From the NCBI RefSeq assembly GCF_003790525.1, contig NZ_CP033635.1: a stretch of 64,000 nucleotides of DNA; one strand, given 5' to 3'. Positions 1-49,008 of this stretch are shown here, in pieces. Within the stretch, counting starts at the first letter, position 1. Every line of letters starts with the position of its first letter. The DNA is from Escherichia coli. Its GTDB lineage: Bacteria; Pseudomonadota; Gammaproteobacteria; Enterobacterales; Enterobacteriaceae. Below the pieces are notes generated by a model. It had not been told where the DNA came from, searched no databases, and saw only the letters and a program-made list of their open reading frames with translations. Made by a program: the position numbers and the translations under genes.

Positions 1-216
1 ATGAGCACCGGCCGTAAGCACGTTATGTTATTGTTTCATTAGTAATAATCACTTAAATGTATCGATGAAACAGGTATGACTTAGCGGGAGTGATTGTTTC
101 TGAGTGAACAGAGACCACTTTAGCCTGATAAATGAAAAATGAGCGATTTTTGCAAGTTAGTTTTTCTATAGCCGAGTACGCTCAGCGCCTCGCTTGATTA
201 CAATGAGGTTGCTGCT

Positions 217-1161: not shown

Positions 1162-1241
1162 TTTTTATATATTCCCTGTGGCAAATATTGCTAAACAATG
1201 CCTGGGGATTAATTTTTATTACTCACGGAAAGATTTAAATA

Positions 1242-1664: not shown

Positions 1665-2210
1665 ATCCACCCAGTCGCGAAAATGGCCTGCGTTATTGCC
1701 AGAGGTAATAAAACCTTTGATTAACGTTACTCATACTGGTAGCACCTTCATGTACCTCTCTTTTTTACGAAAAATCAAAAGAGCTAACTAAGGTCATAAT
1801 TCGCATGAATCATTAACCATTTGTTATTTTCAACATTATTTTTACATTAAGCAGAGATGAATTGCAGTGAAATTCGACTTAAATTTTATGAAATGCATTT
1901 ACTCATGGCTAAACCCATATCACTAAAATGCAAATTAGAAGTAGATCACAAATACCTCAATACACCAAATCAAGTTAATTTTAAAAATTTAACATTCATG
2001 ACATTAGTTGACATAACACACTGAATTAACATGAGAATTTAACAACATACTTTAAACAATCATTTCCCGAAAGACATTTTGAAAATAGATCAATTGCAAC
2101 ATTACGGTCAGATAAAGACACTCCTGTGATATTAAACCTGTGCCGTTATGAACGGCCATAAATACGACGTGTGTAACTTATTTTACTCTCTGTCTTACAA
2201 AGGATTACCC
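1665..2210. promoter_or_regulatory. AT-rich non-coding leader / promoter region upstream of the glutamate mutase operon
   Basis: About 540 bp without a convincing ORF, visibly far more AT-rich than the flanking genes, immediately upstream of the first gene of a six-gene coupled operon. Confidence 0.4.
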
Positions 2211-2660
2211 ATGAAGAAAGCAACACTTGTGATTGGCGTTATTGGCGCGGACTGCCATGCAGTAGGCAATAAAGTTCTGGACCGCGTTTTTAGCAACCAT
2301 GGCTTCAGAGTCATTAATCTGGGCGTAATGGTCAGCCAGGACGAATATATTGATGCGGCCATTGAAACTGGCGCTGACGCGATTGTCGTCTCCTCTATCT
2401 ATGGGCATGGCGATATCGACTGTCTGGGCATGCGCGAACGCTGCATCGAGCGTGGACTGGGGGACATCCTGCTCTATGTGGGCGGTAACCTGGTGGTCGG
2501 AAAACATGACTTCGCTGACGTGGAAACCAAATTCAAAGAGATGGGATTTGATCGCGTCTTTGCCCCAAGTCATGACTTAGAAGATGTTTGTCAGCTGATG
2601 GCCCACGATATCAACCAACGTCATGACGTTGATACTCGTATTCTTGAAGAGGCAATCTGA
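2211..2660 (+). CDS. glutamate mutase S (sigma) subunit, B12-binding component of methylaspartate mutase
   Basis: Translation from [21 protein letters not shown] matches the cobalamin-binding small subunit, including the DxHxxG motif (DCHAVG). Start chosen at the internal ATG preceded by AAGGA; the track ORF starts 21 codons earlier. Confidence 0.85.
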
Positions 2661-4048: not shown

Positions 4049-4066
4049 CAATTAAGGCTGCAATCA

Positions 4067-5512: not shown

Positions 5513-6753
5513 TGAAAATAAAACAGGCTCTGTTCACCGCTGGCTACTCCTCATTCTATTTCGATGACCAGCAGGCGATAAAAAACGGAGCGGGTCATGA
5601 CGGCTTTTTTTATACCGGGGAGCCGGTAACACAGGGGTTTAACGCCGTTCGTCAGGCCGGGGAGTGCGTATCGGTACAGTTGATTCTGGAAAACGGCGCG
5701 GTCGCCGTAGGTGACTGTGCTGCCGTACAGTATTCCGGGGCAGGTGGTCGCGATCCACTGTTCCTCGCTGAGCACTTTATTCCGTTCCTCAACGACCATA
5801 TCAAGCCATTACTGGTAGGCCGCGATGTGGATGCTTTCCTGCCGAATGCCCGTTTCTTCGACAAATTGCGTATTGACGGCAACTTGCTGCATACCGCCGT
5901 GCGCTACGGATTATCACAGGCGCTGCTTGATGCTACCGCGCTGGCAACCGGCCGTCTGAAAACTGAAGTGGTCTGTGATGAATGGCAGTTGCCACGCGTG
6001 GCGGAATCCATTCCATTATTTGGTCAGAGCGGGGACGATCGATATATCGCCGTCGATAAGATGATCCTTAAGGGCATCGACGTGCTGCCCCATGCACTGA
6101 TTAATAACGTCGAAGAGAAACTGGGCTTTAAAGGTGAAAAACTGCGCGAATATGTCCGCTGGCTGTCGGATCGTATTCTGAGCAAGCGCACCAGCGCACG
6201 CTACCACCCTACCCTGCACATCGATGTATACGGCACTATCGGTCTGATCTTCGATATGGATCCGCTTCGCTGTGCGCAATACATCGCCAGCCTGGAAAAA
6301 GAAGCGCAAGGCCTGCCGCTCTACATTGAAGGGCCGGTCGATGCCGGTAACAAGCCCGATCAAATTCGCCTGCTGACCGCGATTACCAAAGAGCTGACGC
6401 GCCTCGGTTCCGGCGTGAAAATTGTGGCCGATGAATGGTGTAACACCTACCAGGATATTGTTGATTTCACTGATGCCGCCAGTTGCCACATGGTGCAAAT
6501 CAAAACCCCGGATCTGGGCAGTATTCACAACATCGTCGATGCAGTTCTTTATTGCAACAGCCACAGCATGGAAGCGTACCAGGGCGGCACCTGCAATGAA
6601 ACTGATGTCAGTGCCCGCACCTGTGTCCACGTCGCCCTTGCCGCTCGCCCCATGCGTATGCTGGTAAAACCAGGGATGGGCTTTGACGAAGGCCTCGATA
6701 TCGTCTTCAACGAAATGAATCGTACTATCGCGCTGTTGCAGGCTAAGGATTAA
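5512..6753 (+). CDS. 3-methylaspartate ammonia-lyase
   Basis: 413-aa translation colinear with clostridial methylaspartase (conserved blocks AVQYSGAGGRDPLF, HALINNVEEKLG, HMVQIKTPDLG, CNETD). Start overlaps the glmE stop. Confidence 0.92.
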   Translation: MKIKQALFTAGYSSFYFDDQQAIKNGAGHDGFFYTGEPVTQGFNAVRQAGECVSVQLILENGAVAVGDCAAVQYSGAGGRDPLFLAEHFIPFLNDHIKPLLVGRDVDAFLPNARFFDKLRIDGNLLHTAVRYGLSQALLDATALATGRLKTEVVCDEWQLPRVAESIPLFGQSGDDRYIAVDKMILKGIDVLPHALINNVEEKLGFKGEKLREYVRWLSDRILSKRTSARYHPTLHIDVYGTIGLIFDMDPLRCAQYIASLEKEAQGLPLYIEGPVDAGNKPDQIRLLTAITKELTRLGSGVKIVADEWCNTYQDIVDFTDAASCHMVQIKTPDLGSIHNIVDAVLYCNSHSMEAYQGGTCNETDVSARTCVHVALAARPMRMLVKPGMGFDEGLDIVFNEMNRTIALLQAKD

Positions 6754-6756
6754 CAA

Positions 6757-8127
6757 ATGGCTCGTTCTTTTAAAGTCTTATCGCCAACGGCAATCCTCGG
6801 GTATGGATTCCCGGAAGAGAGCTTCCGCAAAGCGATGGCAGAATCGCCCGATCTGATCGCCGTTGATGCAGGCTCTTCCGATCCTGGCCCCCACTACCTC
6901 GGGGCGGGCAAACCGTTTACCGATCGCGCAGGGGTCAAGCGTGATTTGCGCTATATGATCACCGCAGGCGTGCAAAATAATATACCGGTGGTGATCGGAA
7001 CGGCCGGCGGTTCTGGTGCCGCTCCACACCTGGAGTGGTGCCGAGAAATAATTCATGAGATTGCCCGGGAAGAGCAACTCGCGTTCTCGATGGCGCTGAT
7101 CCCGGCAGACGTTGACAAAGCCATCGTCCACCAGGCGCTGGATAACGGCAAAATCACGGCGCTGGATTTTGTCCCGCCGTTAACCCACGACGCGATTGAC
7201 GAAAGTACGTATATCGTCGCGCAAATGGGCATCGAACCCTTCCAGCGGGCGCTGAAAGAAGGCGCGCAAGTGGTGCTGGGCGGGCGCGCTTACGACCCGG
7301 CCTGCTTTGCTGCGCTCCCGATCATGCAAGGCTTTGATGAAGGTCTGGCGCTGCATTGTGGGAAAATCCTTGAATGCGCGGCAATCGCCGCAACGCCCGG
7401 CTCAGGCTCTGACTGTGCGATGGGCATCATTGATGACAACGGCTTTACGCTGAAGACATTTAATCCGAAGCGTAAATTTACCGAAACGTCAGCGGCTGCA
7501 CACACACTGTATGAGAAATCCGATCCCTACTTCCTGCCTGGACCTGGCGGCGTGTTGAACCTGAAAGGCTGCACATTTAAAGCGGTCAATGACGGCGAAG
7601 TGTACGTCAGCGGTTCTAAGCATGAAGAAACGCCGTATGCCCTGAAACTGGAAGGTGCGCGACGGGTGGGCTTCCGCTGTCTGACCATCGCAGGAACGCG
7701 CGACCCGATCATGATCGCCGGGATCGATAAAATCATCGATGAAGTCAAAACCAGCGTTTCACGTAACCTGTCGCTCGACGATGACAGCATTCGCATCAAT
7801 TTCCACCTGTACGGCAAAAACGGGGTGATGGGCGACCATGAACCGATGCAAACTGCCGGGCATGAGCTGGGGATTGTCCTTGATGTAGTTGCACCGACCC
7901 AGGAAATTGCCAATAGCGTTTGCTCGCTGGTGCGCTCTACCATGCTGCACTACGGCTATGAAAACCGCATCGCTACCGCAGGCAATCTGGCGTTCCCGTT
8001 CTCCCCTTCTGATATCCAGGGCGGGCCGGTATACGAATTTTCCATATATCACCTGATTGAAGCCAACGACGCTCTGCGTTTTGATTTCCATATTGAACAG
8101 GTGACGCCAGAAGGAGTTCAGGCATGA
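6757..8127 (+). CDS. uncharacterised 456-aa protein, possibly DUF1446/AtuA-like
   Basis: ORF begins 4 nt after the methylaspartase stop in the same operon. Family assignment is from memory and tentative; no catalytic motif recognised. Confidence 0.6.
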   Translation: MARSFKVLSPTAILGYGFPEESFRKAMAESPDLIAVDAGSSDPGPHYLGAGKPFTDRAGVKRDLRYMITAGVQNNIPVVIGTAGGSGAAPHLEWCREIIHEIAREEQLAFSMALIPADVDKAIVHQALDNGKITALDFVPPLTHDAIDESTYIVAQMGIEPFQRALKEGAQVVLGGRAYDPACFAALPIMQGFDEGLALHCGKILECAAIAATPGSGSDCAMGIIDDNGFTLKTFNPKRKFTETSAAAHTLYEKSDPYFLPGPGGVLNLKGCTFKAVNDGEVYVSGSKHEETPYALKLEGARRVGFRCLTIAGTRDPIMIAGIDKIIDEVKTSVSRNLSLDDDSIRINFHLYGKNGVMGDHEPMQTAGHELGIVLDVVAPTQEIANSVCSLVRSTMLHYGYENRIATAGNLAFPFSPSDIQGGPVYEFSIYHLIEANDALRFDFHIEQVTPEGVQA

Positions 8128-8441
8128 AACAGTCAATTGTCTCACTGGCGCAAGTCATTCGTTCGAAAAATGCCGGACCTTACGAACTGGTTTTAGATAT
8201 TTTATTTAAAACGAAAGAAAACTATGAGCGAGTTAAATCATCAGGGCAATTAACCCCAGAACTGATTGCGCGCTTATATCATGTTGAACCTGACTTTATT
8301 CACCGTATTGTCTGGTTTGATCCTTCTAACGCAGTAAAAATCGTCATGCCACGAGATATTATCTCCGGGAATGTAGGTGACAATGATGTCTATGGTGCAC
8401 AGCAACATGCACCTTTATTAAATATGAGTTTCGATTTGTAA
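8124..8441 (+). CDS. uncharacterised 105-aa protein, possibly DUF4387-like partner of the upstream ORF
   Basis: Start overlaps the upstream stop by 4 nt (ATGA). Family assignment tentative. Confidence 0.55.
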   Translation: MKQSIVSLAQVIRSKNAGPYELVLDILFKTKENYERVKSSGQLTPELIARLYHVEPDFIHRIVWFDPSNAVKIVMPRDIISGNVGDNDVYGAQQHAPLLNMSFDL

Positions 8442-8601
8442 AAATCCGAATACTTTTAGCCAACTGACATCCCGTCACTTATTGCAGTTCAACACTTCAG
8501 CTATTTGTAAGGTTGTAATAGCAGGTAGATGCCTGAATCTCTATTCAGGCTTCTACTTCTCCTGATTCTGATTTATCGCCGTGCACCTGATGGAGGAAAA
8601 A

Positions 8602-9882
8602 ATGAAGAAAATAAGTTTAACCACGATGATTCTTTTGGCGCTGGTACTTGGAATGATTATCGGCGTAGTGCTCAATAACACTGCTTCACCGGAAACCGCA
8701 AAACTCTATGCGCAAGAAATATCGATATTCACGACGATTTTCTTACGACTGATAAAAATGATTATCGCTCCGTTAGTGGTCTCTACCCTGGTGGTAGGTA
8801 TAGCTAAAATGGGAGATGCCAAAGCCCTTGGTCGTATTTTTTCTAAAACACTCTTTTTATTTATTTGCGCCTCATTGCTGTCAATCGCCTTAGGCTTGAT
8901 AACAGTAAATTTCTTCATGCCAGGCACAGGAATTAATTTTGTTGCACACGGAGCCGAAACCACCGGAGTGGTCGCGTCAGAACCCTTTACGCTAAAAGTA
9001 TTTATTTCGCATGCTTTCCCCACCAGCATTGTCGATGCCATGGCGCACAATGAAATTTTGCAAATCGTGGTGTTCTCAATTTTCCTCGGCTGTAGCCTGA
9101 CGGCGATTGGTGAGAAAGGCAGCGCCATCGTTCACGCCTTAGATTCGCTGGCACATGCCATGTTAAAGCTCACTGGCTACGTCATGCTCTTCGCTCCCCT
9201 GACCGTATTCGCCGCTATTTCAGCATTGATTGCTGAACGAGGACTGGCAGTTATGGTGAGCGCCGGGATCTTTATGGGTGAATTTTATTTCACCATGTTG
9301 TTACTTTGGGTGCTGCTTATCGGTCTGGCCATCGTTTATGTCGGCCCCTGCATCAGACGCCTGACCCGTGCCCTTTCGGAACCCGCCCTGCTGGCATTTA
9401 CCACATCCAGTTCTGAAGCGGCTTTTCCGGGAACGCTTGAAAAACTGGAGCAATTTGGCGTTTCCCCCAAAATTGCCAGCTTTGTCTTACCCATTGGCTA
9501 CTCATTTAATCTCGTTGGATCAATGGCCTACTGCTCCTTCGCCACAGTTTTCATCGCCCAGGCCTGCAATATCCATTTATCCATCGGTGAGCAAATCACC
9601 ATGCTGTTGATCCTGATGTTGACCTCGAAAGGAATGGCTGGCGTACCACGCGCCTCAATGGTGGTTATCGCCGCCACGCTCAACCAGTTCAATATTCCGG
9701 AAGCGGGGCTGATCTTGCTGATGGGCGTTGATCCGTTCCTTGATATGGGGCGTTCCGCGACAAACGTCATGAGCAACGCAATGGGCGCTGCGATGGTGAG
9801 TCGGTGGGAAGGCGAACATTTCGGCGAGGGCTGTCGGGGTAAAGCATTAAAACCCAATGAATCGAACGTTGCTCTGCCCTGA
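8602..9882 (+). CDS. dicarboxylate/amino acid:cation symporter (GltP/DctA family)
   Basis: Multi-pass hydrophobic protein with GltP-like blocks. Start set at the ATG (MKKISL) preceded by GGAGG; the track ORF begins at an upstream GTG. Confidence 0.8.
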   Translation: MKKISLTTMILLALVLGMIIGVVLNNTASPETAKLYAQEISIFTTIFLRLIKMIIAPLVVSTLVVGIAKMGDAKALGRIFSKTLFLFICASLLSIALGLITVNFFMPGTGINFVAHGAETTGVVASEPFTLKVFISHAFPTSIVDAMAHNEILQIVVFSIFLGCSLTAIGEKGSAIVHALDSLAHAMLKLTGYVMLFAPLTVFAAISALIAERGLAVMVSAGIFMGEFYFTMLLLWVLLIGLAIVYVGPCIRRLTRALSEPALLAFTTSSSEAAFPGTLEKLEQFGVSPKIASFVLPIGYSFNLVGSMAYCSFATVFIAQACNIHLSIGEQITMLLILMLTSKGMAGVPRASMVVIAATLNQFNIPEAGLILLMGVDPFLDMGRSATNVMSNAMGAAMVSRWEGEHFGEGCRGKALKPNESNVALP

Positions 9883-9989
9883 GGGGGATCTTAAGCAATC
9901 AGAAGCCAATGACTACGCATTTTTATAAGCCGGATCATGAAGTTAGACGGCAATTAAGTAAAACTAACGTTTAAGGTGAAAAGTGAAAT

Positions 9990-11642
9990 ATGTCCAAACC
10001 ATTTATCTGGCAAGAACCGTTTCTACAAAATAAAGACGGTACAGAATATACATTAATTAGCGATCAACATATTACAGTAACGGAATTAGACGGCGAAGAA
10101 GTGATAAAAATCGCTCCTGAAGCATTAACGCTGCTTGCCCGGCAGGCATTTTATGAAGCCTCTTTTTTCTTACGTTCCGCTCATTTGCAACAGGTCGCCA
10201 GCATTCTTAACGATCCGCACGCCAGTAGTAATGATAAATACGTTGCGTTGCAGTTATTACGTAATGCTGAAGTCTCAGCAAAAGGGGTATTACCCAACTG
10301 TCAGGATACCGGCACCGCAACTATTGTTGCCAGTAAAGGGCAACAGATATGGACCGGAGGTAACGACGCTGAAGCCTTAAGCAAAGGCATTTACACCACT
10401 TTTCAGGAAAATAATCTGCGCTTTTCACAAAATGCGCCACTGGATATGTTTACCGAAGTCAATACGCAAACCAATCTCCCGGCGCAGATTGATATCAGCG
10501 CCGTCGCTGGTGATGAGTACCATTTTCTCTGTATTAATAAAGGGGGCGGCTCTGCCAATAAAGCCGCGCTTTATCAGGAAACCAAATCCCTATTGCAACC
10601 AGAAAAACTGACCGCATTTTTAATCGAAAAAATGAAATCGCTGGGCACCGCTGCCTGCCCGCCTTACCACATCGCCTTTGTCGTCGGAGGGCTTTCAGCC
10701 GATCAAACCTTAAAAGTTGCCAAGCTGGCCTCAACGAAATATTACGACAATTTGCCCACCAGCGGAAACGAGCAAGGACAAGCATTCCGTGATATTGAGC
10801 TGGAAAAAGTATTGCTCGAGGCCAGTCAGCAATTTGGTATTGGTGCGCAATTTGGGGGTAAATATTTCGCTCATGATATTCGCGTCATTCGTCTGCCGCG
10901 TCACGGTGGCTCTTGCCCGATAGCTATGGCGCTCTCCTGTTCTGCGGATCGCAATATCAAAGCAAAAATTAACAAGCACGGTATCTGGCTGGAAAAACTC
11001 GAACACAATCCGGGGCAATATATTCCAGCCTCACTGCGGGAAGAAAATCACGCGCAACATGTACAGCTGGATCTAAACCGTCCGTTGCGTGACGTGATGC
11101 AGGATCTCGCCAGATTACCGGTAGGCACCCGCGTGTCGTTAAGTGGTCCCATCGTAGTGGCGCGCGATATCGCCCACGCCAAAATAAAAGCGCGGCTGGA
11201 TAGCGGCGAACCGATGCCGGATTACCTGAAGCATCATATTGTCTATTACGCTGGCCCGGCGAAAACACCGGAGAACATGGCCTGCGGTTCACTGGGTCCA
11301 ACCACGGGCGGTCGAATGGACGGTTATGTCGATACCTTCCAGGCGGCTGGCGGCAGTCTGGTGATGTTATCGAAAGGTAACCGCAGCCAGCAGGTCACCG
11401 ATGCCTGTCACAAACATGGCGGCTTCAATCTGGGGAGTATTGGCGGTGCAGCTGCGTTACTGGCGCAAGAATATGTCAAAAGTCTGCGTTGCCTGGAATA
11501 CCCGGAGCTGGGTATGGAAGCGGTGTGGATGATGGAAGTGGAAAATTTACCCGCATTCATCCTGGTAGATGATAAAGGCAATAATTTCTTTAGTCAGTTT
11601 GAGCAGCAACACCGCTGCGCCAGTTGCCCTGCGGGACATTAA
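9990..11642 (+). CDS. class I (Fe-S) fumarate hydratase paralog, FumA/FumB-like; candidate mesaconase
   Basis: 550-aa translation colinear with E. coli FumA (e.g. [35 protein letters not shown]). The mesaconase role is inferred from operon context only. Confidence 0.85.
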
Positions 11643-11651
11643 GGAAAATGA

Positions 11652-12254
11652 ATGGAAGCGCGAATTTCAACTGAACGGCATGTGCAGCGCCAGCAGAAAT
11701 TGAAGGAACAGGTCGATACGCGCGTCGCGGCGGCGATAGAGAAAAAAGGGATTTTGATTGTTTTCACCGGCAATGGCAAAGGGAAATCCACTGCCGCGTT
11801 TGGTACTGTGACGCGCGCGGTGGGTCATGGCAAAACGGTGGGGGTTGCGCAGTACATCAAGGGGCAATGGGACAACGGCGAATACAACCTTCTCCAGCCG
11901 CTGGGGGTTGAGTTTCATATTATGGGAACCGGTTTTACCTGGGAGACACAGAACCGGCAAGCGGATATCGACGCGGCGAAAGAGGTCTGGTCGGAAAGCA
12001 AACGGATGCTGGCTGACAAGCGTTACGACTTAGTGGTGCTTGATGAGCTGACCTATATGCTGGCTTACCATTATCTGGATACCGAAGAAGTGATCGCTTC
12101 TCTGCAAAACCGCCCGGCACAACAAAGTGTCATTGTCACCGGACGCGGTTGCCACAGTCAGATATTAAAAATGGCGGATACGGTCAGCGAAATCCGCCCC
12201 GTCAAACATGCTTTTGATAACGGCATTCAGGCCCAGCCGGGTATCGACTGGTAA
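11652..12254 (+). CDS. corrinoid adenosyltransferase paralog (BtuR/CobA family)
   Basis: 200-aa translation closely colinear with E. coli BtuR, including the P-loop-like block IVFTGNGKGKSTAAFG. Confidence 0.85.
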   Translation: MEARISTERHVQRQQKLKEQVDTRVAAAIEKKGILIVFTGNGKGKSTAAFGTVTRAVGHGKTVGVAQYIKGQWDNGEYNLLQPLGVEFHIMGTGFTWETQNRQADIDAAKEVWSESKRMLADKRYDLVVLDELTYMLAYHYLDTEEVIASLQNRPAQQSVIVTGRGCHSQILKMADTVSEIRPVKHAFDNGIQAQPGIDW

Positions 12255-12287
12255 TAACTGCGCCTGGCATCCCGCCAGGCGCAGGTT

Positions 12288-13193
12288 TTACATCTCCTGC
12301 GGTACGACCGATTTCGCCAGCAACCATTCACGAAATTGCTGCAAGTGCGGTGAGTCAGACTTCTCTTCCTGCCACGTCATAATAAAACGATTACCGGTAC
12401 GAATAGGCACATCACAGGGAATCACCATATCGCCACTATCCAAATCATGTTGAATAGCGAACCGTGGTAACAGCGCCACGCCGAGATTAGAGCGCACGGC
12501 GGCAATCAGCATTGAAAGCAAATCGAAACGTGGTCCGTTATTGACCAGCGGACTGCTAACGCCAGATAAAGCAAACCACTCTTCCCAGCCAGTAATACGG
12601 GTGCTTTGATGCAGAAGTGGTAACTCAGTAAGCAGTTCTGCCACTGACAGTTTTTGATCGGACATTGCAAGCAAACTGCCGCTGCATACCGGCAAAATCT
12701 CCTCATCAAAGAGATATTCTACTTCCGCCCAGGGCGCGCAAAAATTTTCGCGCATAATGACAGCATCGTACTCCCGATTAAGAAAATCGCCGTTATTAGC
12801 TAAAGAATGAATATTAACAATAATATCGGGATGTAACTTTGTGAATTCATGTAAATTTGGGATTAACCAGTGGGTACTAAACGTAGGATTCACGGCAAGT
12901 TCAATAACCTGAACCGTAGGCTGCCAGGTCATAATGGTATTGGTATCGCGTTCCAGCTTATTTAATGTTTCTTTTACTATCCCCAGGTAATACTTCCCTG
13001 CATCATTAAGAAAAATGCGTTTTTTAGAGTGTGAAAATAACGGAGTATGTAAAAATTCCTCCAGCGCACTTACTTGTCTGAATACTGCACTTTGGGTTAA
13101 CGCTAACTCCTCTGCCGCTCTGGTATAACTTTCATGACGTGCGACGACCTCAAAAGTCACCAGCAGTTCCGTTTTAGGTATTTTTCCTCGCAT
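12288..13193 (-). CDS. LysR-family transcriptional regulator
   Basis: 301-aa ORF with an N-terminal helix-turn-helix (TRAAEELALTQSAVFRQVSALEE) and a LysR substrate-binding domain. Convergent with the upstream operon. Confidence 0.85.
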   Translation of the reverse strand: MRGKIPKTELLVTFEVVARHESYTRAAEELALTQSAVFRQVSALEEFLHTPLFSHSKKRIFLNDAGKYYLGIVKETLNKLERDTNTIMTWQPTVQVIELAVNPTFSTHWLIPNLHEFTKLHPDIIVNIHSLANNGDFLNREYDAVIMRENFCAPWAEVEYLFDEEILPVCSGSLLAMSDQKLSVAELLTELPLLHQSTRITGWEEWFALSGVSSPLVNNGPRFDLLSMLIAAVRSNLGVALLPRFAIQHDLDSGDMVIPCDVPIRTGNRFIMTWQEEKSDSPHLQQFREWLLAKSVVPQEM

Positions 13194-13770
13194 AATGCCT
13201 TCCCTTAAAAATAGTTGAAACTATCAAAAAACCATTACTTATTGCTAAGTAATGGCAACCAAAGCAGCAATCAATATTTTATAAAAATCATGTTCGATAT
13301 TTATAACCTGGTAAGCCTGGCGTGACAATTGTCTTAATCAGATAATAATAATCCGAAAAGCACAGCACCTTTCGAATTATCAGGAATTACATTAAGTGAA
13401 AATTATTAAATTGATATCATTTATCATATCTGTGGATATTATGATAAACAATCAACATAGATTTTATTTTTGATTTATAGCATATCCCTCTAAGAATTTT
13501 TGCGATGCTTCAATATCCGGGGTAAAGACCCGATCCTGACTGACAAATGGCACGACTTGACGATAAGCGGTGAACATCGCTTTTGTTGATTTACTTAACG
13601 CTACGGTCAAACGCTGGGAAGCCAGTGCATCAGGTAACGATTCGAAATTCGCCGTCGTTCTTATTCGTGGCTTGCGGTCGGTCGCGGCAATCCACAGTGG
13701 CTGTGGTCATGCAGTCAAGCCTGCAGTCAGATTCCGACCGTGGTTAACGTTTAAGGCATAAAAAAGGCCA

Positions 13771-13858
13771 TCATATGATGGCCAACCATGTCGAAACCGA
13801 CAGCCCTTCGCCATTCCTGTAGAGGGAAGCGGCGAGGGCTATTTCTTATTACAGATAT
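13771..13858 (-). ncRNA. sdhX: sucD 3'-UTR small RNA (SdhX/RybD-type) ending in an intrinsic terminator
   Basis: Region immediately after the sucD stop on the minus strand ends in the perfect palindrome GGCCATCATATGATGGCC followed by a T-run. Identity as SdhX rests on position and recollection; 5' end approximate. Confidence 0.45.
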
Positions 13859-14728
13859 TTATTTCAGAACAGTTTTCAGTGCTTCACCGATATCCGCCAG
13901 GCTGCGAACGGTTTTCACGCCTGCGGCTTCCAGAGCAGCAAATTTCTCATCCGCAGTCCCTTTCCCACCGGCAATGATGGCACCCGCGTGGCCCATACGT
14001 TTGCCTTTCGGCGCAGTCACACCAGCGATGTAACCCACAACAGGCTTGGTAACGTGCTCTTTGATGTACGCAGCCGCTTCTTCTTCAGCGCTACCGCCGA
14101 TCTCACCGATCATCACGATCGCTTCGGTCTGCGGATCTTTTTCGAACATTTCGAGGATGTCGATAAAGTTAGAGCCAGGGATCGGGTCGCCGCCGATACC
14201 AACACAGGTCGACTGACCGAAACCGTAATCCGTGGTCTGTTTAACCGCTTCATAGGTCAGTGTACCGGAACGGGAAACGATACCCACTTTACCCGGTTTG
14301 TGAATGTGACCAGGCTGGATACCGATTTTGCATTCACCCGGAGTGATAACGCCCGGGCAGTTCGGGCCGATCATGCGAACGCCCGCTTCATCCAGTTTCA
14401 CCTTCACGGTCAGCATATCCAGCGTCGGGATGCCTTCAGTGATGGTGATAATCAGTTTGATGCCTGCATCAATAGCTTCCAGAATGGAGTCTTTGCAGAA
14501 CGGTGCTGGTACGTAGATAACAGAAGCGGTAGCGCCAGTAGCAGCAACAGCTTCACGCACGGTGTTGAACACCGGCAGGCCGAGGTGGGTGGTGCCGCCT
14601 TTACCTGGGGTTACGCCGCCAACCATTTTAGTGCCGTATGCAATAGCCTGTTCTGAGTGGAAAGTCCCCTGGCTACCGGTAAAGCCCTGGCAGATAACCT
14701 TGGTGTTTTTATCAATTAAAATGGACAT
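13859..14728 (-). CDS. sucD: succinyl-CoA synthetase alpha subunit
   Basis: 289-aa translation recognised as SucD. Confidence 0.97.
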
Positions 14729-15894
14729 TATTTCCCCTCCACTGCGGCAACAACCTGCTGAGCTGCATCCGTCAGACCTTTTGCTGCAATAATATTCAGG
14801 CCGCTGTCAGCCAGTTTCTTCGCGCCGAGTTCGGCGTTGTTACCTTCCAGACGTACCACGACCGGTACGTTAACACCCACTTCCGCTACCGCGCCGATGA
14901 TACCGTCAGCGATCAGGTCGCAACGAACGATACCGCCGAAGATGTTAACCAGAACGGCTTTCACTTTGTCGTCAGAGAGGATGATTTTGAACGCTTCGGT
15001 TACGCGCTCTTTGGTTGCGCCGCCGCCAACGTCCAGGAAGTTAGCTGGTTCGCCGCCGTGCAGTTTAACGATGTCCATGGTGCCCATCGCCAGGCCTGCG
15101 CCGTTAACCATACAACCGATGTTACCGTCCAGCGCAACGTAGTTCAGTTCCCACTGTGCAGCCTGTGCTTCACGCGGATCTTCCTGCGACTGGTCACGCA
15201 TTTCGCGCAGATCAGGCTGGCGGAACAGTGCGTTGCCATCAGCGCCCAGTTTGCCGTCGAGGCAAATCAGATCGCCCTGTTTGGTGATGACCAGCGGGTT
15301 GATTTCGATCAGCGCCAGGTCGCGCTCCAGGAAAATGGTCGCCAGGCCCATGAAGATTTTGGTGAACTGCTGAACCAGTTTACCTTCCAGACCCAGTTTG
15401 AACGCCAGCTCGCGTCCCTGATACGGCATCGGGCCAGTCAGCGGATCAAGCGCAACTTTGTGGATCAGGTGCGGAGTTTCTTCCGCCACTTTTTCGATTT
15501 CCACGCCGCCTTCGGTGGAGGCCATAAAGACCACGCGACGTGAACTACGGTCTACAACGGCACCGAGATACAGCTCTTTAGCGATATCGGTCGCTGCTTC
15601 AACCAGAATCTGGTTAACCGGTTGGCCATTGGCATCTGTTTGATACGTTACCAGACGCTTGCCCAGCCAGTTTTCTGCAAAAGCACGGATGTCTTCTTTG
15701 CTGTTTACCACTTTCACACCGCCCGCTTTACCGCGGCCACCAGCGTGAACCTGACATTTCACTACCCACGGACCGGCACCGATTTTTGAAGCGGCTTCTT
15801 CTGCTTCGCGCGGAGTAGTACAGGCATAACCCACCGGTGCTGGTAAGCCATAGCGGGCAAAAAGTTGTTTTGCCTGATATTCATGTAAGTTCAT
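14728..15894 (-). CDS. sucC: succinyl-CoA synthetase beta subunit
   Basis: 388-aa translation recognised as SucC; stop overlaps the sucD start. Confidence 0.97.
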
Positions 15895-15934
15895 GTGTTC
15901 TGTCCATCCTTCAGTAATCGTTATCTTTTAAACC

Positions 15935-15965
15935 GTAGACCGACACCCTATCCACGTCGGTCTAC
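15935..15965 (-). repeat. intergenic hairpin between sucB and sucC
   Basis: Perfect 10-bp inverted repeat GTAGACCGAC ... GTCGGTCTAC with an 11-nt loop. Confidence 0.5.
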
Positions 15966-15987
15966 AGTGCAGGTGAAACTTAAACTA

Positions 15988-17205
15988 CTACACGTCCAGC
16001 AGCAGACGCGTCGGATCTTCCAGCAACTCTTTGATCGTTACCAGGAAGCCCACGGATTCGCGACCATCGATCAGACGGTGATCGTAGGACAGCGCCAGGT
16101 ACATCATCGGCAGGATCTCAACCTGACCATTCACCGCCATCGGACGATCTTTGATAGCGTGCATACCCAGAATTGCGCTCTGCGGCGGGTTGATGATCGG
16201 CGTAGACATCAGGGAACCGAACACACCACCGTTGGTGATGGTGAAGTTACCACCGGTCAGATCTTCAACCGTCAGCTTGCCGTCACGGCCTTTAACTGCC
16301 AGCTCTTTAATTTTCTTCTCAATGTCTGCCATACCGAGGGTATCGACATCACGCAGTACCGGCGTCACCAGGCCGCGCGGCGTAGAAACCGCCATGCTGA
16401 CGTCGAAATAGTTGTGGTAAACCACGTCATCGCCGTCGATAGAAGCATTCACTTCCGGGTAACGTTTCAGGGCTTCAACCACCGCTTTCACGTAGAAGGA
16501 CATAAAGCCCAGACGGATGCCGTGGCGTTTTTCAAACGCTTCACCGTACTGCTTACGCAGATCCATAATCGGCTTCATGTTGACTTCGTTGAACGTGGTC
16601 AGCATGGCGGTGGAGTTTTTCGCTTCCAGCAGACGCTCTGCCACACGCTTACGCAGGCGAGTCATCGGCACACGTTTTTCGCTACGTGCAGCCAGGGCCG
16701 GTTGCGCCGCCGGAGCAGCCGCTGCCGGAGCAGACTCTTTCGCCGGGGCTTTCGCCAGATGTTTTTCCACATCTTCACGGGTCAGACGACCACCTACACC
16801 GGTGCCTTTAATGGCGCTGGCATCAAGATTGTGTTCAGCCAGCAGGCGACGGATCGCCGGGCTTAACGCATCGTTGTTTTGCTCTTCCAGAGACGCCTGC
16901 TGGCGTTGCGCCGGAGTGGACGCTTTCTCTTCAGATTTGGCGCTGGTTTCTTTACCGGCGCTGTTGCCTTCACGCAGGCGACCAAGGATCTGACGAGACG
17001 TTACCGTTGTACCTTCATCTTCCAGAACCGCATCCAGAATGCCGTCTGCTGATGCCGGTACTTCCAGTACCACTTTGTCAGTTTCGATTTCTACCAGCAC
17101 TTCATCACGTACGACTGCGTCGCCGGGTTTTTTATGCCAGGTTGCGACGGTGGCATCGGCTACGGATTCAGGCAGGTCAGGGACCAGAATATCTACGCTA
17201 CTCAT
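15988..17205 (-). CDS. sucB: dihydrolipoyllysine-residue succinyltransferase (2-oxoglutarate dehydrogenase E2)
   Basis: 405-aa translation recognised as SucB, with lipoyl domain and Ala/Pro-rich linker. Confidence 0.97.
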
Positions 17206-17219
17206 TGTGTATCCTTTAT

Positions 17220-20021
17220 TTATTCGACGTTCAGCGCGTCATTAACCAGATCTTGTTGCTGTTTCTGGTGAACGGACATATACCCTACCGCCGGAGAGGC
17301 GGAGGCCGGGCGGCCTGCATAACGCAGAGAAGCCCCAAACGGAATCACTTCACGGAAATGATGCTGGCTGCAGTACCATGCGCCCTGATTGAGCGGCTCT
17401 TCCTGGCACCAGACAAAATCCTTGACGTGAGCAAACTGCTGCAACACTTCCTGCATCGCTTTATGCGGGAACGGGTAGAGTTGCTCGATACGCACAATGG
17501 CGACATCGTGTTGATTGTTCTTACGACGCTGTTCCAGCAGGTCGTAATAAACCTTACCAGAACACATCACTACGCGCTTCACGCCCTTCGGATCAAGCTC
17601 GTCGATTTCACCGATGGCTGGCAGGAAGGTGCCGTTCGCCAGTTCTTCGAGGCTGGAAACCGCCAGCGGATGACGCAGCAGGGATTTCGGCGACATCACG
17701 ACCAGCGGACGACGCATCCCGCGCAGCGCCTGACGACGCAGCATGTGGTAAACCTGTGCCGGGGTAGACGGTACGCACACCTGCATGTTTTGCTCAGCGC
17801 AAAGTTGCAGATAACGTTCCAGACGCGCGGAGGAGTGCTCCGGCCCCTGCCCTTCGTAACCGTGCGGCAGCAACATCACCAGACCACACATCCGGCCCCA
17901 TTTCTGCTCGCCAGAGGAGATGAACTGGTCGATAACCACCTGAGCACCGTTGGCGAAGTCACCGAATTGCGCTTCCCAGATAGTCAGAGTGCGTGGTTCT
18001 GCGGTGGCATAACCGTATTCAAACGCCAGTACGGCTTCTTCAGACAGTACGGAGTCCCAGACACGGAACGCGCCCTGGCCGTTATGGATGTGTTGCAGCG
18101 GCGTGTAAGTGGAACCGTTAGACTGGTTGTGGATCACCGCGTGGCGGTGGAAGAAGGTACCGCGACCGGAGTCTTCACCCGACAGGCGAACCGGAATGCC
18201 TTCGTCAACCAGCGTGGCGTAAGCGAGGTTTTCCGCGCCGCCCCAGTCGAACAGTTTCTCACCAGCAGCCATCGCCTGGCGATCGCCATAAATCTTGGCA
18301 ACGCGAGACTGCATTTCAACTGCTTCCGGCACCGTGCTGATGCGTTTAGCCAGTTCCTGCAGGCGCTTCATCTCAACTTTGTTCGGGTACTCTTCGTCCC
18401 ATTCGTGGTTGAGGTACGGCGACCAGGTGAAAGAGTGCATGTTCATCGGACGCCACTCTGCTACAACGCAATCGCCAGCATCCAGCGCATCGCGGTACAG
18501 GTTAACCATCTCGGTGGCATCTTCCAGCGTCGCGACTTTTTCCTGCTCCAGCTTGTCAGCATAGATTTTGCGCGGCGTCGGATGTTTTTTGATTTTCTGA
18601 TACATCAGCGGCTGGGTTGCGCTCGGCTCGTCGGCTTCGTTGTGGCCGTGACGGCGGTAGCACACCAGGTCGATGAAGACATCACGTTTAAAGGTGTTAC
18701 GGAAATCGAGCGCCAGACGGGTCACAAAAGCAACGGCTTCCGGATCATCCGCGTTTACGTGGAAAATCGGTGCCTGAACCATCTTACCGATATCAGTACA
18801 GTACGGTGTAGAACGAGCATCCAGCGGATTAGAGGTGGTGAAGCCAACCTGGTTGTTGATAACGATACGTACCGTACCGCCAACTTCATAACCACGCGCT
18901 TTCGACATGTTCAGGGTTTCCTGAACCACGCCCTGCCCGGTCACTGCGGCGTCACCGTGGATGGTGATTGGCAGCACTTTGTTGCTGCTCGGCTCATCGA
19001 GTCTGTCCAGACGGGCACGAACAGAACCGATAACTACCGGGCTGACAATCTCAAGGTGAGACGGGTTAAACGCCAGCGCCAGGTGCACCAGGCCGCCATC
19101 GGTCTGGAAGTCAGACGAGAAGCCCATGTGGTATTTCACGTCGCCCGTGCCGAGGTGTTCTTTATGTTTACCGGCAAACTCGTCGAACAAGTCTTGCGGT
19201 TTTTTACCCAGCACGTTCACCAGCACGTTCAGACGACCACGGTGCGCCATCCCGAGAACCACTTCGCGGGTGCCGCTGTTGCCAGCGTGGCGGATCATCT
19301 CTTTAAGCATCGGGATTAACGCGTCACCGCCTTCCAGCGAGAAGCGTTTTGCGCCAGGGAATTTTGCGCCGAGGTAACGTTCAAGGCCTTCAGCGGCGGT
19401 CAGTTCGCTTAAGAAGCGTTTTTTCTCTTCGCTATTGAAAGTCGCGCGACCAGACTCGATACGCTGTTGGATCCAGCGTTTTTCTTCGGTGCTGGTGATG
19501 TGCATATACTCGGCACCAATCGGGCCGCAGTAGGTTTGCTTGAGGGCTTCCAGCAGCTCGCCGAGTTTCATGGTTTCTTTGCCGCTGGCAAATGAACCGA
19601 CGTTGAAGGTCTCCTGGAAGTCTGCTTCGGTCAGATCGTGGAAAGACGGATCCAGATCGGCCACTTTATCTTGCTGCCACAGTCCCAGCGGATCGAGATT
19701 CGCATGCTGGTGACCACGGAAGCGGTATGCGTTAATGAGCTGCAGGACTTTAACCTGCTTCACATTGGTGTCAGGGTCGGAGATCGTTGAAGAGTAACGT
19801 GAAGCGTCTTTCGCCAGGCGGCGGAAATATTCACGCGTTTGAGAGTGGAATTGATCCGGTTTGACTCCCGTACCAGGTAACTGCTGGAACGTCGAACGCC
19901 AGTTAGCGTCAACCGAGTCAGGATCGGTTAAGAAGTCTTCATAGAGCTGTTCTATCCAGCTCTGGTTTGCGCCAGAGAGGTAAGAAGAGTCCAACCAGGC
20001 TTTCAAAGCGCTGTTCTGCAT
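17220..20021 (-). CDS. sucA: 2-oxoglutarate dehydrogenase E1 component
   Basis: 933-aa translation recognised as SucA. Confidence 0.97.
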
Positions 20022-20221
20022 CGTGATCCCTTAAGCATCTTTTTTATGCTTACTTCGCCGTGGATACTACCACGCACAATGATGTGCGTGCCGGGGTTCA
20101 CTTGCGAGCTCTTGTCTACGTAGTGGCTCGCGAAGGAACCTTTAAAAACTGTCTTAGTGTCAGGGGCAGTTTTTAAAGATTTCCTGAATAGCCGGGGGAT
20201 TTCCCCGGCATCAACATTTAA

Positions 20222-20938
20222 TTACGCATTACGTTGCAACAACATCGACTTGATATGGCCGATGGCGCGCGTCGGGTTCAGCCCCTTCGGACATACACTG
20301 ACGCAGTTCATGATGCTGTGACAGCGGAATACACTGAATGCATCGCTCAAACCGTCGAGGCGGCTGTCAGTCTCGGTATCACGGCTATCGATCAGGAAAC
20401 GATATGCCGCTAACAAGCCTGCCGGGCCGATAAACTTATCGGGATTCCACCAGAAAGACGGACAAGAGGTTGAACAACATGCGCAGAGAATACATTCATA
20501 CAACCCGTCGAGTTTTTCGCGCTGCTCTGGCATCTGTAAATGCTCGCGAGCTGGCGGATTTTGTCCATTATTCAACAGGTAAGGCTTAATTTTCTCATAT
20601 TGCGCATAGAATTGTCCCATGTCTACCACCAAATCGCGGATCACCGGTAAACCTGGCAGCGGGCGAATCACAATCTTCTTGCCCGGCTGGTTGAGTGCCG
20701 AAATCGGGGTAATACAGGCCAGACCATTCTTACCGTTCATGTTCAGACCGTCGGAACCGCACACACCTTCGCGGCAGGAGCGGCGGAACGACAGGCTGGG
20801 ATCTTTCTCTTTCAGCTGGATAAGCGCATCCAGCAGCATCATGTCGCGACCTTCTTCCGCTTCCAGGGTGTAATCCTGCATACGCGGAGCATCATCAACA
20901 TCCGGGTTATAGCGATAAATTGAAAACTCGAGTCTCAT
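20222..20938 (-). CDS. sdhB: succinate dehydrogenase iron-sulfur subunit
   Basis: 238-aa translation recognised as SdhB, with Cys clusters. Confidence 0.97.
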   Translation of the reverse strand: MRLEFSIYRYNPDVDDAPRMQDYTLEAEEGRDMMLLDALIQLKEKDPSLSFRRSCREGVCGSDGLNMNGKNGLACITPISALNQPGKKIVIRPLPGLPVIRDLVVDMGQFYAQYEKIKPYLLNNGQNPPAREHLQMPEQREKLDGLYECILCACCSTSCPSFWWNPDKFIGPAGLLAAYRFLIDSRDTETDSRLDGLSDAFSVFRCHSIMNCVSVCPKGLNPTRAIGHIKSMLLQRNA

Positions 20939-20953
20939 TTTCCTGTCTCCGCA

Positions 20954-42486: not shown

Positions 42487-43160
42487 CAAACGTTCTGATT
42501 GTTGAAGATGAACAGGCTATTCGTCGCTTTCTGCGCACGGCGCTGGAGGGCGACGGGATGCGCGTCTTTGAGGCCGAAACGCTGCAACGCGGCTTGCTGG
42601 AAGCGGCAACCCGTAAGCCAGATTTGATTATTCTCGATCTCGGCCTGCCCGATGGTGATGGGATTGAGTTTATCCGCGACCTGCGCCAGTGGAGCGCGGT
42701 GCCGGTGATTGTGCTTTCCGCACGCAGCGAAGAGAGCGACAAAATCGCCGCACTGGATGCCGGAGCGGATGATTACCTGAGTAAGCCGTTTGGCATTGGC
42801 GAATTGCAGGCCCGTCTGCGCGTCGCTTTACGCCGCCACTCCGCCACCACCGCGCCCGATCCGCTGGTGAAATTTTCCGATGTGACCGTCGATTTAGCCG
42901 CCCGCGTGATTCACCGGGGTGAGGAAGAGGTGCATCTCACGCCGATTGAATTCCGCCTGCTGGCCGTGCTGCTCAACAACGCCGGAAAAGTGCTCACCCA
43001 GCGCCAGTTACTCAATCAGGTGTGGGGACCAAACGCGGTCGAACACAGTCATTATTTGCGTATTTATATGGGGCATCTGCGACAAAAACTGGAGCAAGAT
43101 CCCGCCCGCCCCCGCCATTTCATTACTGAAACCGGTATTGGGTATCGGTTTATGCTTTGA
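42483..43160 (+). CDS. kdpE: response regulator KdpE (OmpR family)
   Basis: 225-aa translation; GTG start overlapping the kdpD stop. Confidence 0.93.
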   Translation: MTNVLIVEDEQAIRRFLRTALEGDGMRVFEAETLQRGLLEAATRKPDLIILDLGLPDGDGIEFIRDLRQWSAVPVIVLSARSEESDKIAALDAGADDYLSKPFGIGELQARLRVALRRHSATTAPDPLVKFSDVTVDLAARVIHRGEEEVHLTPIEFRLLAVLLNNAGKVLTQRQLLNQVWGPNAVEHSHYLRIYMGHLRQKLEQDPARPRHFITETGIGYRFML

Positions 43161-43197
43161 ATATTAATTTTAATACATCCTGCCTTTTATTAATTAA

Positions 43198-47270: not shown

Positions 47271-47286
47271 AAAAAGCGAAATAAAA

Positions 47287-47320
47287 AAGGGCGATTGAAT
47301 GATCGCCCTTTCTGTTTGTT
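47287..47320 (+). terminator. intrinsic terminator downstream of potE
   Basis: Hairpin GGGCGAT-TGAATG-ATCGCCC followed by TTTCTGTTTGTT. Confidence 0.65.
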
Positions 47321-47353
47321 GACAAAGAGTTCGTTATTTATGCCGCATCCGGC

Positions 47354-47495
47354 AGGTGTAGGGTCCAAACGCGGTCGAACACAGCAACTATTTGCGTAAT
47401 TATATGAGGCATTTGCGACAAAAACTGGAACAGGATCTCGTCCGCCCCGCCATTTCATTACTGAAACCGGTATTGGGTATCGGTTTATGCTTTGA
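47354..47495 (+). repeat. degenerate direct repeat of the kdpE 3' end (about 142 bp), non-coding fragment
   Basis: Aligns base-for-base with kdpE 43014-43160 at roughly 90% identity with one 3-bp gap; the last ~50 nt, including the TGA, are identical. Confidence 0.85.
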
Positions 47496-47618
47496 AAAAA
47501 GTGGCAATGTATGGATAAAGTCATTTTTTATTCAAATATAAGGAACTTAATATTTAAAAAATGTCCCATACAATGCCTCATCATAAATGACACCGTAGCA
47601 CACAAGGAGCAAGTAGCG

Positions 47619-48269
47619 ATGCGTGAAGTGAGTCAGTTAGTAAATACTGAAGATTCAGCCTGGCCAATAATCCAGAATTGGTTAAAAGAAGCCACAAACC
47701 ATGCCGAACTCTTACCGGTTAATAAAGATTTAGCCGAAACCGCACTTTATCAATTACAGGTTACAACAAAATCACCGATGGGTGCGCTTGTCTATGGCTC
47801 CGGAGGTCTGCTGATTGATAACGGTTGGTTACGCATAGCAGGCTCTGGTCACCCCCGGTTACCACGAGATCCAGCAAGTTGGACACAACGCCCTGAATTC
47901 GCAAGCGTGCGGGCTTTACCCATCGCCGATGATGTCGCAGGGGGAATTTTTGCTCTTAATGGTGGCGATCTTGGGGAAGATACTGGCTGCGTTTATTATT
48001 TTGCGCCAGATACGCTGAATTGGGAAAGTCTGGAGGTTGGATATTCTGAGTTTCTTCAGTGGGCATTATCCGGTGATTTAGATACCTTCTATGAAAATGT
48101 ACGCTGGCCGCAATGGCAAGAAGACGTAATAAAATTATCGGCAACGGAAGCCTTCACTTTCTACCCTTTCTTATGGGTACAATGTGAAGAAGCAAGAACA
48201 AGAAAAGTTATTTCGCTTACTGAACTCTGGGAAATGCAGTATCAAATGAAAGAAACAATCACGCAATAA
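47619..48269 (+). CDS. uncharacterised protein, YbfG-like (possibly DUF2625)
   Basis: 216-aa ORF from the ATG preceded by AGGAG (MREVSQLVNTEDSAWP...). Family name recalled, not verified. Confidence 0.6.
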   Translation: MREVSQLVNTEDSAWPIIQNWLKEATNHAELLPVNKDLAETALYQLQVTTKSPMGALVYGSGGLLIDNGWLRIAGSGHPRLPRDPASWTQRPEFASVRALPIADDVAGGIFALNGGDLGEDTGCVYYFAPDTLNWESLEVGYSEFLQWALSGDLDTFYENVRWPQWQEDVIKLSATEAFTFYPFLWVQCEEARTRKVISLTELWEMQYQMKETITQ

Positions 48270-48309
48270 GACATGTTCAGGTCCGGGTTTCATTCCCGGA
48301 CTCGCTATT

Positions 48310-48804
48310 TTAATGTGTGTTTATCGCTTTCAATTCTTGCTGGCAATTTTCTGACTGACAGCGTCGCAACTCAATAATCCCTACATGCATCATCGAGCCA
48401 AAAAATCCGCTTTCGCTGACATAATCCTCATTAACTAGCGGTCGAGTGCCGGGCTTACCCTGGCAAATCCCCATAAAAAATGAGGTGTAGCATTGCCATT
48501 CAGGATTTAAACCGGTCTTTTCTTGTGCTGACATATCATGAAGATAAGTAAGTTCTTTTTCGTTCCCGCCTGACAACTGCCAGCGGCGGGTATTATCAGG
48601 TAAGTTATCGCCACGGCAATTTGTCTTACACCGGGAAGGCGCAATATTTACCGTAATGCTCCCCGTTAATCCTCTGGTTTTATCTTTAGGGGTCAGTAAC
48701 CAGTCACCAGCTAATGATGATTGTTCAGGTTGGGCGCATGCTGTCAGCAGTAGTGTGGCGGTAATTAATGCCACTCTGACGACCAGACTCCTTTTGGTCT
48801 TCAT
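48310..48804 (-). CDS. ybfP: lipoprotein YbfP
   Basis: Start set at MKTKRSLVVRVALITATLLLTAC (lipoprotein signal with lipobox LTAC), giving 164 aa. Confidence 0.85.
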   Translation of the reverse strand: MKTKRSLVVRVALITATLLLTACAQPEQSSLAGDWLLTPKDKTRGLTGSITVNIAPSRCKTNCRGDNLPDNTRRWQLSGGNEKELTYLHDMSAQEKTGLNPEWQCYTSFFMGICQGKPGTRPLVNEDYVSESGFFGSMMHVGIIELRRCQSENCQQELKAINTH

Positions 48805-48855
48805 TTTGAATTCCCTTGAGCTATTCAGTTTGTTGGCAAAGTGCTCGTTGTTCAT

Positions 48856-48960
48856 GCCGGATGCGGCGTGAACGTCTTATCCGGCCTACAAAATCGCGTA
48901 AATTCAATATATTGCACCATCTTCCCAAGCCTGATAAGCGTAGCGCATCAGGCAGTCATA
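48856..48960. repeat. REP (repetitive extragenic palindrome) cluster between ybfP and pgm
   Basis: GCCGGATGCGGCGTGAACGTCTTATCCGGCCTAC and GCCTGATAAGCGTAGCGCATCAGGC match the enterobacterial REP consensus. Confidence 0.8.
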
Positions 48961-49008
48961 AGTAAAAAAAGGCGATCTTCTGACCGCCCTTTTTCTTATT
49001 AAATGTGT

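Follow-up and report, generated by a model that had tools for sequence, protein, structure and literature searches.

The 64,000-nucleotide stretch of Escherichia coli DNA analysed here (contig NZ_CP033635.1; hereafter the window) contains ybfG, a gene that lies between potE and pgm and encodes a member of the DUF2625 family, a domain of unknown function. Our analysis deals with the state of this gene in E. coli and with the role of its product. We consider it rather probable that DUF2625 proteins provide immunity to DNase toxin domains of the NucA/NucB type, with the E. coli gene being an orphan copy that lacks a toxin. The gene and the positions within and before it that matter for the following comparison are:

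47605..47610, plus strand: Shine-Dalgarno sequence AAGGAG, 8 nt 5' of the ybfG ATG, read directly from the sequence.
47619..48269, plus strand: ybfG, an intact DUF2625 gene of 216 codons, identified by its open reading frame (ORF), matches to PF10946 and NF008494, an AlphaFold2 model and structural matches to SUKH proteins.
47826..47828, plus strand: ybfG codon 70, TGG (Trp) in the window and TAG (amber) in K-12.
47943..47945, plus strand: ybfG codon 109, GGA (Gly) in the window and in BL21, GTA (Val) in K-12.

The ybfG frame of 651 nt starts with the ATG at 47619, continues without interruption through 216 sense codons and closes with a TAA ending at 48269. An initial annotation, made from the sequence alone, had described an uninterrupted 216-codon frame with a good ribosome-binding site, and both features are present. 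In a family alignment of 40 sequences the start of every homologue coincides with the position of M1, and the NCBIfam model NF008494 covers positions 1-216 of 216; therefore, we place the start of ybfG at 47619. An alternative start, the ATG at 47511 (252 codons), was ruled out by the family alignment, the NF008494 match and the position of the ribosome-binding site.

A domain search of the 216-residue product, as the initial annotation had proposed, identifies a DUF2625 protein over its full length. Residues 5-202 of YbfG align with positions 2-206 of the 207-position PF10946 model (290.1 bits against a cut-off of 27, E-value 8e-87), and the equivalog NF008494 (PRK11408) scores 510.1 bits against a cut-off of 278, so that the curated thresholds are exceeded in both cases. 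There are 610 homologues with 45-57% identity across phyla, all of about 215-225 amino acids, which together with the PF10946 match argues that ybfG is not a chance ORF. The window protein retains all 27 invariant columns of the family alignment, Gly-109 included, and also Trp-70. Polar residues that are invariant in the family are Asp-67, Arg-72, Ser-76, Arg-83, Asp-104 and Asp-105. Between the window allele and that of BL21 we counted 10 synonymous and 10 non-synonymous codon differences, corresponding to a ratio of non-synonymous to synonymous substitution rates (dN/dS) of 0.27 (Nei-Gojobori; Fisher p=0.005), and none of the 10 replacements falls into an invariant column. The low ratio and the sparing of the invariant columns indicate purifying selection between the intact alleles. 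RefSeq holds the intact gene as a “DUF2625 domain-containing protein” (WP_001209503.1 and WP_001208814.1), from which the gene in the window does not differ in kind, and no function is assigned to it in the databases. The name DUF2625 was found in no searchable paper, nor was the function proposed here, which supplementary tables of earlier surveys of polymorphic toxins may nevertheless mention, and the PADLOC models of anti-phage defence match neither YbfG nor the neighbouring lipoprotein YbfP.

The corresponding locus of K-12 (NZ_CP132594.1) holds the same 651-nt frame, annotated there as a DUF2625 domain-containing protein, pseudogene, with an internal stop. The gene order speF, potE, kdpE', ybfG, ybfP and pgm is identical in the window and in K-12, and nucleotide identity amounts to 96.6% over the 651-nt frame and to 96.1% over 1039 nt. 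This shared chromosomal position and near-identical sequence make the window gene the orthologue of K-12 ybfG, which we take to be the pseudogene of the b0691 region that was formerly split as ybfG/ybfH. The suspicion of the initial annotation that the K-12 locus is a pseudogene holds, but the frameshifts for which it proposed a search do not exist: the two frames are collinear, with no insertion or deletion inside the gene. K-12 ybfG owes its pseudogene state to the in-frame amber codon at position 70, where TGG has become TAG. In BL21(DE3) the gene is intact (WP_001208814.1), and the K-12 allele departs from it solely by W70* and G109V. Compared with K-12, YbfG of the window has 10 further differences, all at non-conserved residues. 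Across the cross-phylum alignment of 40 sequences Gly-109 is invariant and position 70 is Trp, except for a Tyr in Burkholderia and related members, so both changes specific to K-12 strike conserved positions. Owing to G109V (positions 3172-3174 of the K-12 locus), repair of the amber codon alone might leave the K-12 gene non-functional. As a pseudogene, ybfG has been deleted in K-12 to provide a neutral control (bioRxiv 10.1101/2022.09.01.506172); such knock-outs are valid as neutral controls only because the gene is already dead in that strain.

How common the two states are was determined in 5426 complete E. coli genomes, classified by the allele at codon 70 and by coverage of the gene. Some part of ybfG is found in 1852 of them (34%) and at least 80% of the gene in 1777, and it is absent from the remaining two thirds (about 66%). 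The 61-mer with the BL21-type TGG at codon 70 occurs in 1277 genomes and that with the K-12 TAG in 364; of seven TAG carriers that were listed, six are strains of laboratory or K-12 type (MG1655, ER1709, Stbl4, DSM 498 and others). A further 129 genomes carry an allele with at least 99% identity to that of the window, several of them with 100%. One such strain is AR_0013 (NZ_CP032204.1), whose ybfG region shows 100% identity to the window DNA and whose protein is WP_001209503.1. About 75 genomes have only a partial ybfG (a 5' deletion in each of the three listed). Further lesions are one insertion of the insertion sequence IS1 and, in APEC 102026, a copy with a frameshift and a deletion. The intact gene is thus the majority state among E. 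coli carriers, the amber codon being found mostly in laboratory derivatives of K-12. The initial annotation had suggested that this strain may retain the functional ancestral form. The gene is indeed intact and keeps the 27 invariant residues, but this is not special to the strain. In addition, neither an uninterrupted protein in K-12 nor a lack of conserved homologues, which it had named as grounds for giving up the idea, is observed, since the K-12 gene is interrupted and homologues are abundant. The intact allele is already annotated as a named RefSeq protein that is covered by an NCBIfam equivalog, so the observation is correct but ordinary.

No solved structure is related to YbfG by sequence; the best E-value, 0.022, belongs to an unrelated adhesin. 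We compared a model of the protein, predicted with AlphaFold2 from the alignment of 40 sequences (predicted local distance difference test score 91.6, predicted template modelling score 0.89), to the PDB using the program Foldseek. The matches comprise Tdi2 and Tdi1, which are immunity proteins against type VI Ntox15 effectors, as well as Lin2918, Knr4, BF1740, Atu4351 and YobK, and the structural neighbours also include Syd and the SUKH domain of FBXO3. The α/β fold of the predicted model is similar to that of several solved members of the SUKH superfamily. On the basis of this model, YbfG is a SUKH-superfamily protein, in shape closest to proteins that confer immunity to DNases. The profile of the SUKH-1 family SMI1_KNR4 (PF09346) matches residues 89-135 only and stays below its threshold (15.8 bits against 25.4, E-value 0.021); this match points toward SUKH, as the structural comparison does. 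Tdi1, Tdi2 (PDB-codes: 8g0k, 8fzz) and Atu4351 (PDB-code: 6itw) have the GAD-like/DUF1851 architecture and share only 11-13% sequence identity with YbfG, and across the 40 family members neither DUF1851 nor the GAD-like domain is matched even at E-values up to 10. The toxins differ as well, since the cognate toxin of Tdi1 and Tdi2 is Ntox15, whereas DUF2625 is paired with domains of the NucA/NucB type. In comparison to YobK and RhsPI, which belong to SUKH-1 (SMI1/KNR4), DUF2625 proteins are larger and possess an extra N-terminal lobe. Neither a signal peptide nor a hydrophobic segment was obvious when the YbfG sequence was inspected by eye, without a predictor, as would suit a DNase inhibitor located in the cytoplasm.

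The pairing with toxin domains emerged from the genomic context of the family. A search of a collection with one genome per species (100,044 species) gave 489 stretches with DUF2625 relatives, and the best 80 loci were kept; they belong to Bacteroidota, Proteobacteria and Myxococcota, plus two from Firmicutes. No conserved operon partner of DUF2625 was found, as clustering of the neighbours at 68 loci yielded only synteny at the level of the genus. In Clostridium homopropionicum (locus L063) a 1605-residue Rhs protein with a C-terminal DNase_NucA_NucB domain ends 30 nt before the start of the DUF2625 gene, and in Anoxybacillus (locus L088) a 457-residue protein with the same C-terminal domain ends 20 nt before it. 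Over 105 residues the toxin domains of these two proteins share 68% identity, and the N-terminal parts of the proteins are unrelated. According to a profile search this domain is found on Rhs, filamentous-haemagglutinin-like and PT-HINT proteins of many phyla, including those of Salmonella. In a reciprocal test, metagenomes were scanned with patterns of the toxin domain alone, which returned 19 loci. Directly after the toxin, these contain:

DUF2625 gene: 12 of the 19 metagenome loci.
DUF6707 gene: 3 of the 19.
ComJ/Nin gene: 1 of the 19.
ORF of 101 amino acids of unknown kind: 2 of the 19.
End of the contig: 1 of the 19.

At the 10 loci with a delimited frame, the position of the DUF2625 start ranges from 4 nt ahead of the end of the toxin stop codon to 30 nt beyond it, and five downstream ORFs, one for each distinct pair, score 79-267 bits on PF10946 (cut-off 27). 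The toxins followed by DUF2625 in the metagenomes bear RHS repeats, those of the other cases PT-HINT and DUF4280, or PT-VENN. One identical cassette of toxin domain and DUF2625 is found on four different toxin bodies of at least 1431 (an Rhs protein), 541, 215 and 139 residues, and such an exchange of bodies is a hallmark of toxin-immunity modules. Altogether, DUF2625 is adjacent to a toxin at 14 loci (L063, L088, L105-L115 and L123), which represent about six to seven independent pairs after near-identical loci are collapsed. At the level of the family, DUF2625 genes therefore occur as immunity genes of polymorphic toxins do, directly 3' of the toxin gene, on the same strand and moving with it as a cassette. 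Alignment of the toxin-linked proteins with YbfG extends over the full length and shows the motifs common to the family, the closer pairs being 40-46% identical.

Across the loci the toxin domain, which shares 49-60% identity with the query domain, precedes four apparently unrelated proteins, namely DUF2625, DUF6707, ComJ/Nin and the 101-residue ORF. In Salmonella it forms an Rhs orphan module 3' of a PAAR-Rhs gene, between VgrG genes, and is 56% identical to the domain of the Firmicutes. Nin/ComJ and DUF6707 resemble DUF2625 in standing directly after toxin domains of the NucA/NucB type, but neither is matched to it by tblastn; DUF6707 reads as helix-rich from its sequence, and our idea that it could be a distant relative of DUF2625 was not supported. 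Some DUF2625 genes without a toxin lie among small genes on the same strand, in Citrobacter (locus L006) next to DUF596 and DUF7661 and in Flavobacterium (locus L010) next to DUF6620, DUF2314 and SUFU; these groups may be multi-immunity clusters. Text matches to “NucB” in one preprint (bioRxiv 10.1101/2025.10.28.685041) were discarded, as they refer to the stain NucBlue.

In the window, ybfG has no toxin gene next to it. Its neighbours are potE, the kdpE' fragment, ybfP and pgm, and for this reason it could only be an orphan immunity gene. The surrounding features are as follows:

47279..48959, no strand assigned: accessory islet of about 1.68 kb (1681 bp) with kdpE', ybfG and ybfP, between potE and pgm.
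47353..47496, plus strand: kdpE' fragment, frameshifted by a 1-nt deletion, 91% identical (132/145) to kdpE 43017-43161.
47492-47521 and 47547-47574, plus strand: two weak sigma-70-like promoter matches from a consensus scan, 9/12 each.
48280..48302, plus strand: terminator-like hairpin in the convergent gap between ybfG and ybfP, with an 8-bp stem including 6 G-C pairs and then a T-rich tail.
48310..48804, minus strand: ybfP, a gene for a lipoprotein of 164 amino acids, annotated as lipoprotein or hypothetical, with no Pfam match.

The promoter-like matches 5' of ybfG scarcely exceed the expectation from shuffled sequences and do not count as evidence of a working promoter. With 44.6% (window positions 47323-48960), the G+C content of the islet is lower than that of potE (51%) and pgm (55%). 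We inspected one genome that lacks the gene, the sequence type 131 (ST131) strain 4433, in which potE abuts pgm and the whole islet is missing. Imperfect copies of a terminator-like hairpin bracket the islet in the window (47279-47322 and 48960-49003, 31/44 identical), and strain 4433 has a single copy between potE and pgm. Gain or loss of the islet by recombination at the hairpin fits this arrangement.

The kdpE repeat that the initial annotation had seen upstream of ybfG is real. It covers the final 145 nt of a kdpE-like gene, up to and not beyond the kdpE stop codon. In AR_0013, K-12 and BL21 the annotation is that of a partial pseudogene of a winged-helix protein. The 1-nt deletion is present in the window and not in K-12. 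Presumably the fragment is ybfI of K-12. Its divergence of 9% from the resident kdpE and its end at the stop codon suggest that, in an ancestor or in a donor genome, ybfG was formerly located immediately 3' of a kdpE-like gene. YbfP has a lipobox (LLLTAC) and eight cysteines in its mature part and is 93% identical to YbfP of K-12; it was rejected as a functional partner of DUF2625, because it is a neighbour in E. coli only and never elsewhere among the loci fetched. A contig of 1.9 kb from a Collinsella metagenome-assembled genome (JAIJJM010000630.1) encodes proteins 95% (YbfG) and 93% (YbfP) identical to those of the window and, judging from this similarity, is almost certainly an E. coli contamination of the bin. 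Beyond the islet, the window is 98.2% identical to AR_0013 over positions 26026-49966, positions 13720-25393 match AR_0013 about 7.4 kb lower, and positions 1-13700 have no match in the stretch of AR_0013 examined. From this loss of collinearity it follows that the strain differs from AR_0013 by an insertion or replacement near the end on the suc/sdh side.

We hypothesize that YbfG is a cytoplasmic SUKH-fold protein that would act as an orphan immunity protein. It would bind and neutralise a DNase toxin domain of the NucA/NucB type that competitors may deliver on polymorphic toxins such as Rhs proteins, CdiA-like proteins or effectors of type VI secretion. E. coli would keep the gene without the toxin in a small, dispensable islet of low G+C content; the strain of the window would have a working copy, and the K-12 lineage would have lost it through the amber codon at Trp-70, with G109V as an additional change. 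That YbfG binds and inhibits a DNase, and that the orphan of E. coli has remained active, we infer from the toxin-DUF2625 pairs, the reciprocal test, the shared motifs, the signature of selection and a precedent. In gut Bacteroidales, divergent orphan SUKH immunity genes have been shown to confer protection against effectors of type VI systems; these genes lie in rAID clusters and, like ybfG, lack the toxin (bioRxiv 10.1101/2025.05.03.651265). They differ from ybfG in being part of recombinase-associated arrays, whereas ybfG is present singly, in an islet of 1.7 kb that has no recombinase. On the side of the toxin, a NucB-like C-terminal domain of WapA is toxic upon expression in E. coli (PMC12704120).

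Several observations speak against orphan immunity. As many as 78 of the 80 reference loci are orphans, and tblastn detected no NucA/NucB-like sequence at these 78 loci or anywhere in the window. The neighbours of DUF2625 are heterogeneous (129 flanking genes that represent 151 Pfam families), and the toxin-linked members all come from Firmicutes or from unassigned metagenome contigs, none of them from Enterobacterales. The same type of toxin is followed by DUF6707 in Salmonella and Flavobacterium and by ComJ/Nin in Pseudomonas, which makes DUF2625 one of several alternative partners. The conservation of the orphan proteins across phyla is unusually strong (45-57% identity, 27 invariant residues), which is not typical of immunity genes, as these evolve fast, and might point to a conserved partner of another kind. 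Finally, the gene has been repeatedly lost or broken within E. coli, by absence, the amber codon, 5' deletions, a frameshift and IS1. We regard as conceivable, but would not go so far as to call probable, the more extensive proposal that DUF2625 represents a SUKH-type immunity family not described before, directed against NucA/NucB-like DNases, of which the solitary copies in Proteobacteria and Bacteroidota, ybfG among them, are working orphans.

Alternatively, ybfG could have no function and simply be carried along on an islet that was acquired horizontally and is now decaying, the frame in the window being one that the decay has not yet reached. Its presence in about one third of the genomes, the absence of the entire islet from strain 4433 and the low G+C content would agree with this, as would the independent lesions (the K-12 amber codon, the frameshift and deletion in APEC 102026, the roughly 75 partial copies and the IS1 insertion), the use of the K-12 knock-out as a neutral control and the fact that the adjoining kdpE' is itself a pseudogene. 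A passenger of this kind, however, should not show the purifying selection seen between the diverged intact alleles, nor retain every invariant residue of the family together with a ribosome-binding site and a terminator. Trp-70, moreover, is kept in 1277 plus 129 genomes, counted by the codon-70 allele or by identity and not frame by frame. Taken together, we judge a mere passenger to be unlikely.

The partner of YbfG need not be a toxin. Syd, which binds SecY, as well as Knr4 and the SUKH domain of FBXO3 are among the structural neighbours, and YbfG might be an adaptor, comparable to Syd or Knr4/Smi1, whose partner has a housekeeping or regulatory role. Strong cross-phylum conservation that extends to the six invariant polar residues and the solitary occurrence of most members in varied contexts are in line with such a role. 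On the other hand, structural similarity is highest to immunity proteins, a sporadic distribution suggestive of horizontal transfer and the dispensability in E. coli fit a housekeeping partner poorly, and the gene is toxin-adjacent at 14 loci of the family, those of the reciprocal search included; we therefore think an adaptor quite improbable, and less credible than a passenger. NucA/NucB-family enzymes also occur as ordinary secreted nucleases, and in Bacillus subtilis Nin/ComJ inhibits the endogenous NucA. Since ComJ/Nin takes the same slot after the toxin domain in Pseudomonas and at one metagenome locus, YbfG could likewise restrain a nuclease of its own cell. We know of no PF14040 nuclease in E. 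coli K-12, no E. coli protein is among the matches listed for the toxin domain (120 of 227 relatives), and the window and the 78 orphan loci lack any such sequence, so that inhibition of an endogenous nuclease appears very remote.

An intact ybfG alone changes nothing; the allele is common and already annotated, and the exceptional strain is K-12. What the analysis contributes is a lead on function, as a domain of unknown function becomes tied to a specific type of toxin and to a known fold, and ybfG thereby becomes testable as an orphan immunity gene. If orphan immunity holds, the patchy presence of the gene in E. coli would be explained as a variable trait of interbacterial defence. Wild E. 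coli strains that bear the islet would then resist DNase effectors delivered by Rhs, CdiA or type VI systems, whereas K-12 and the two thirds of strains without the gene would not.
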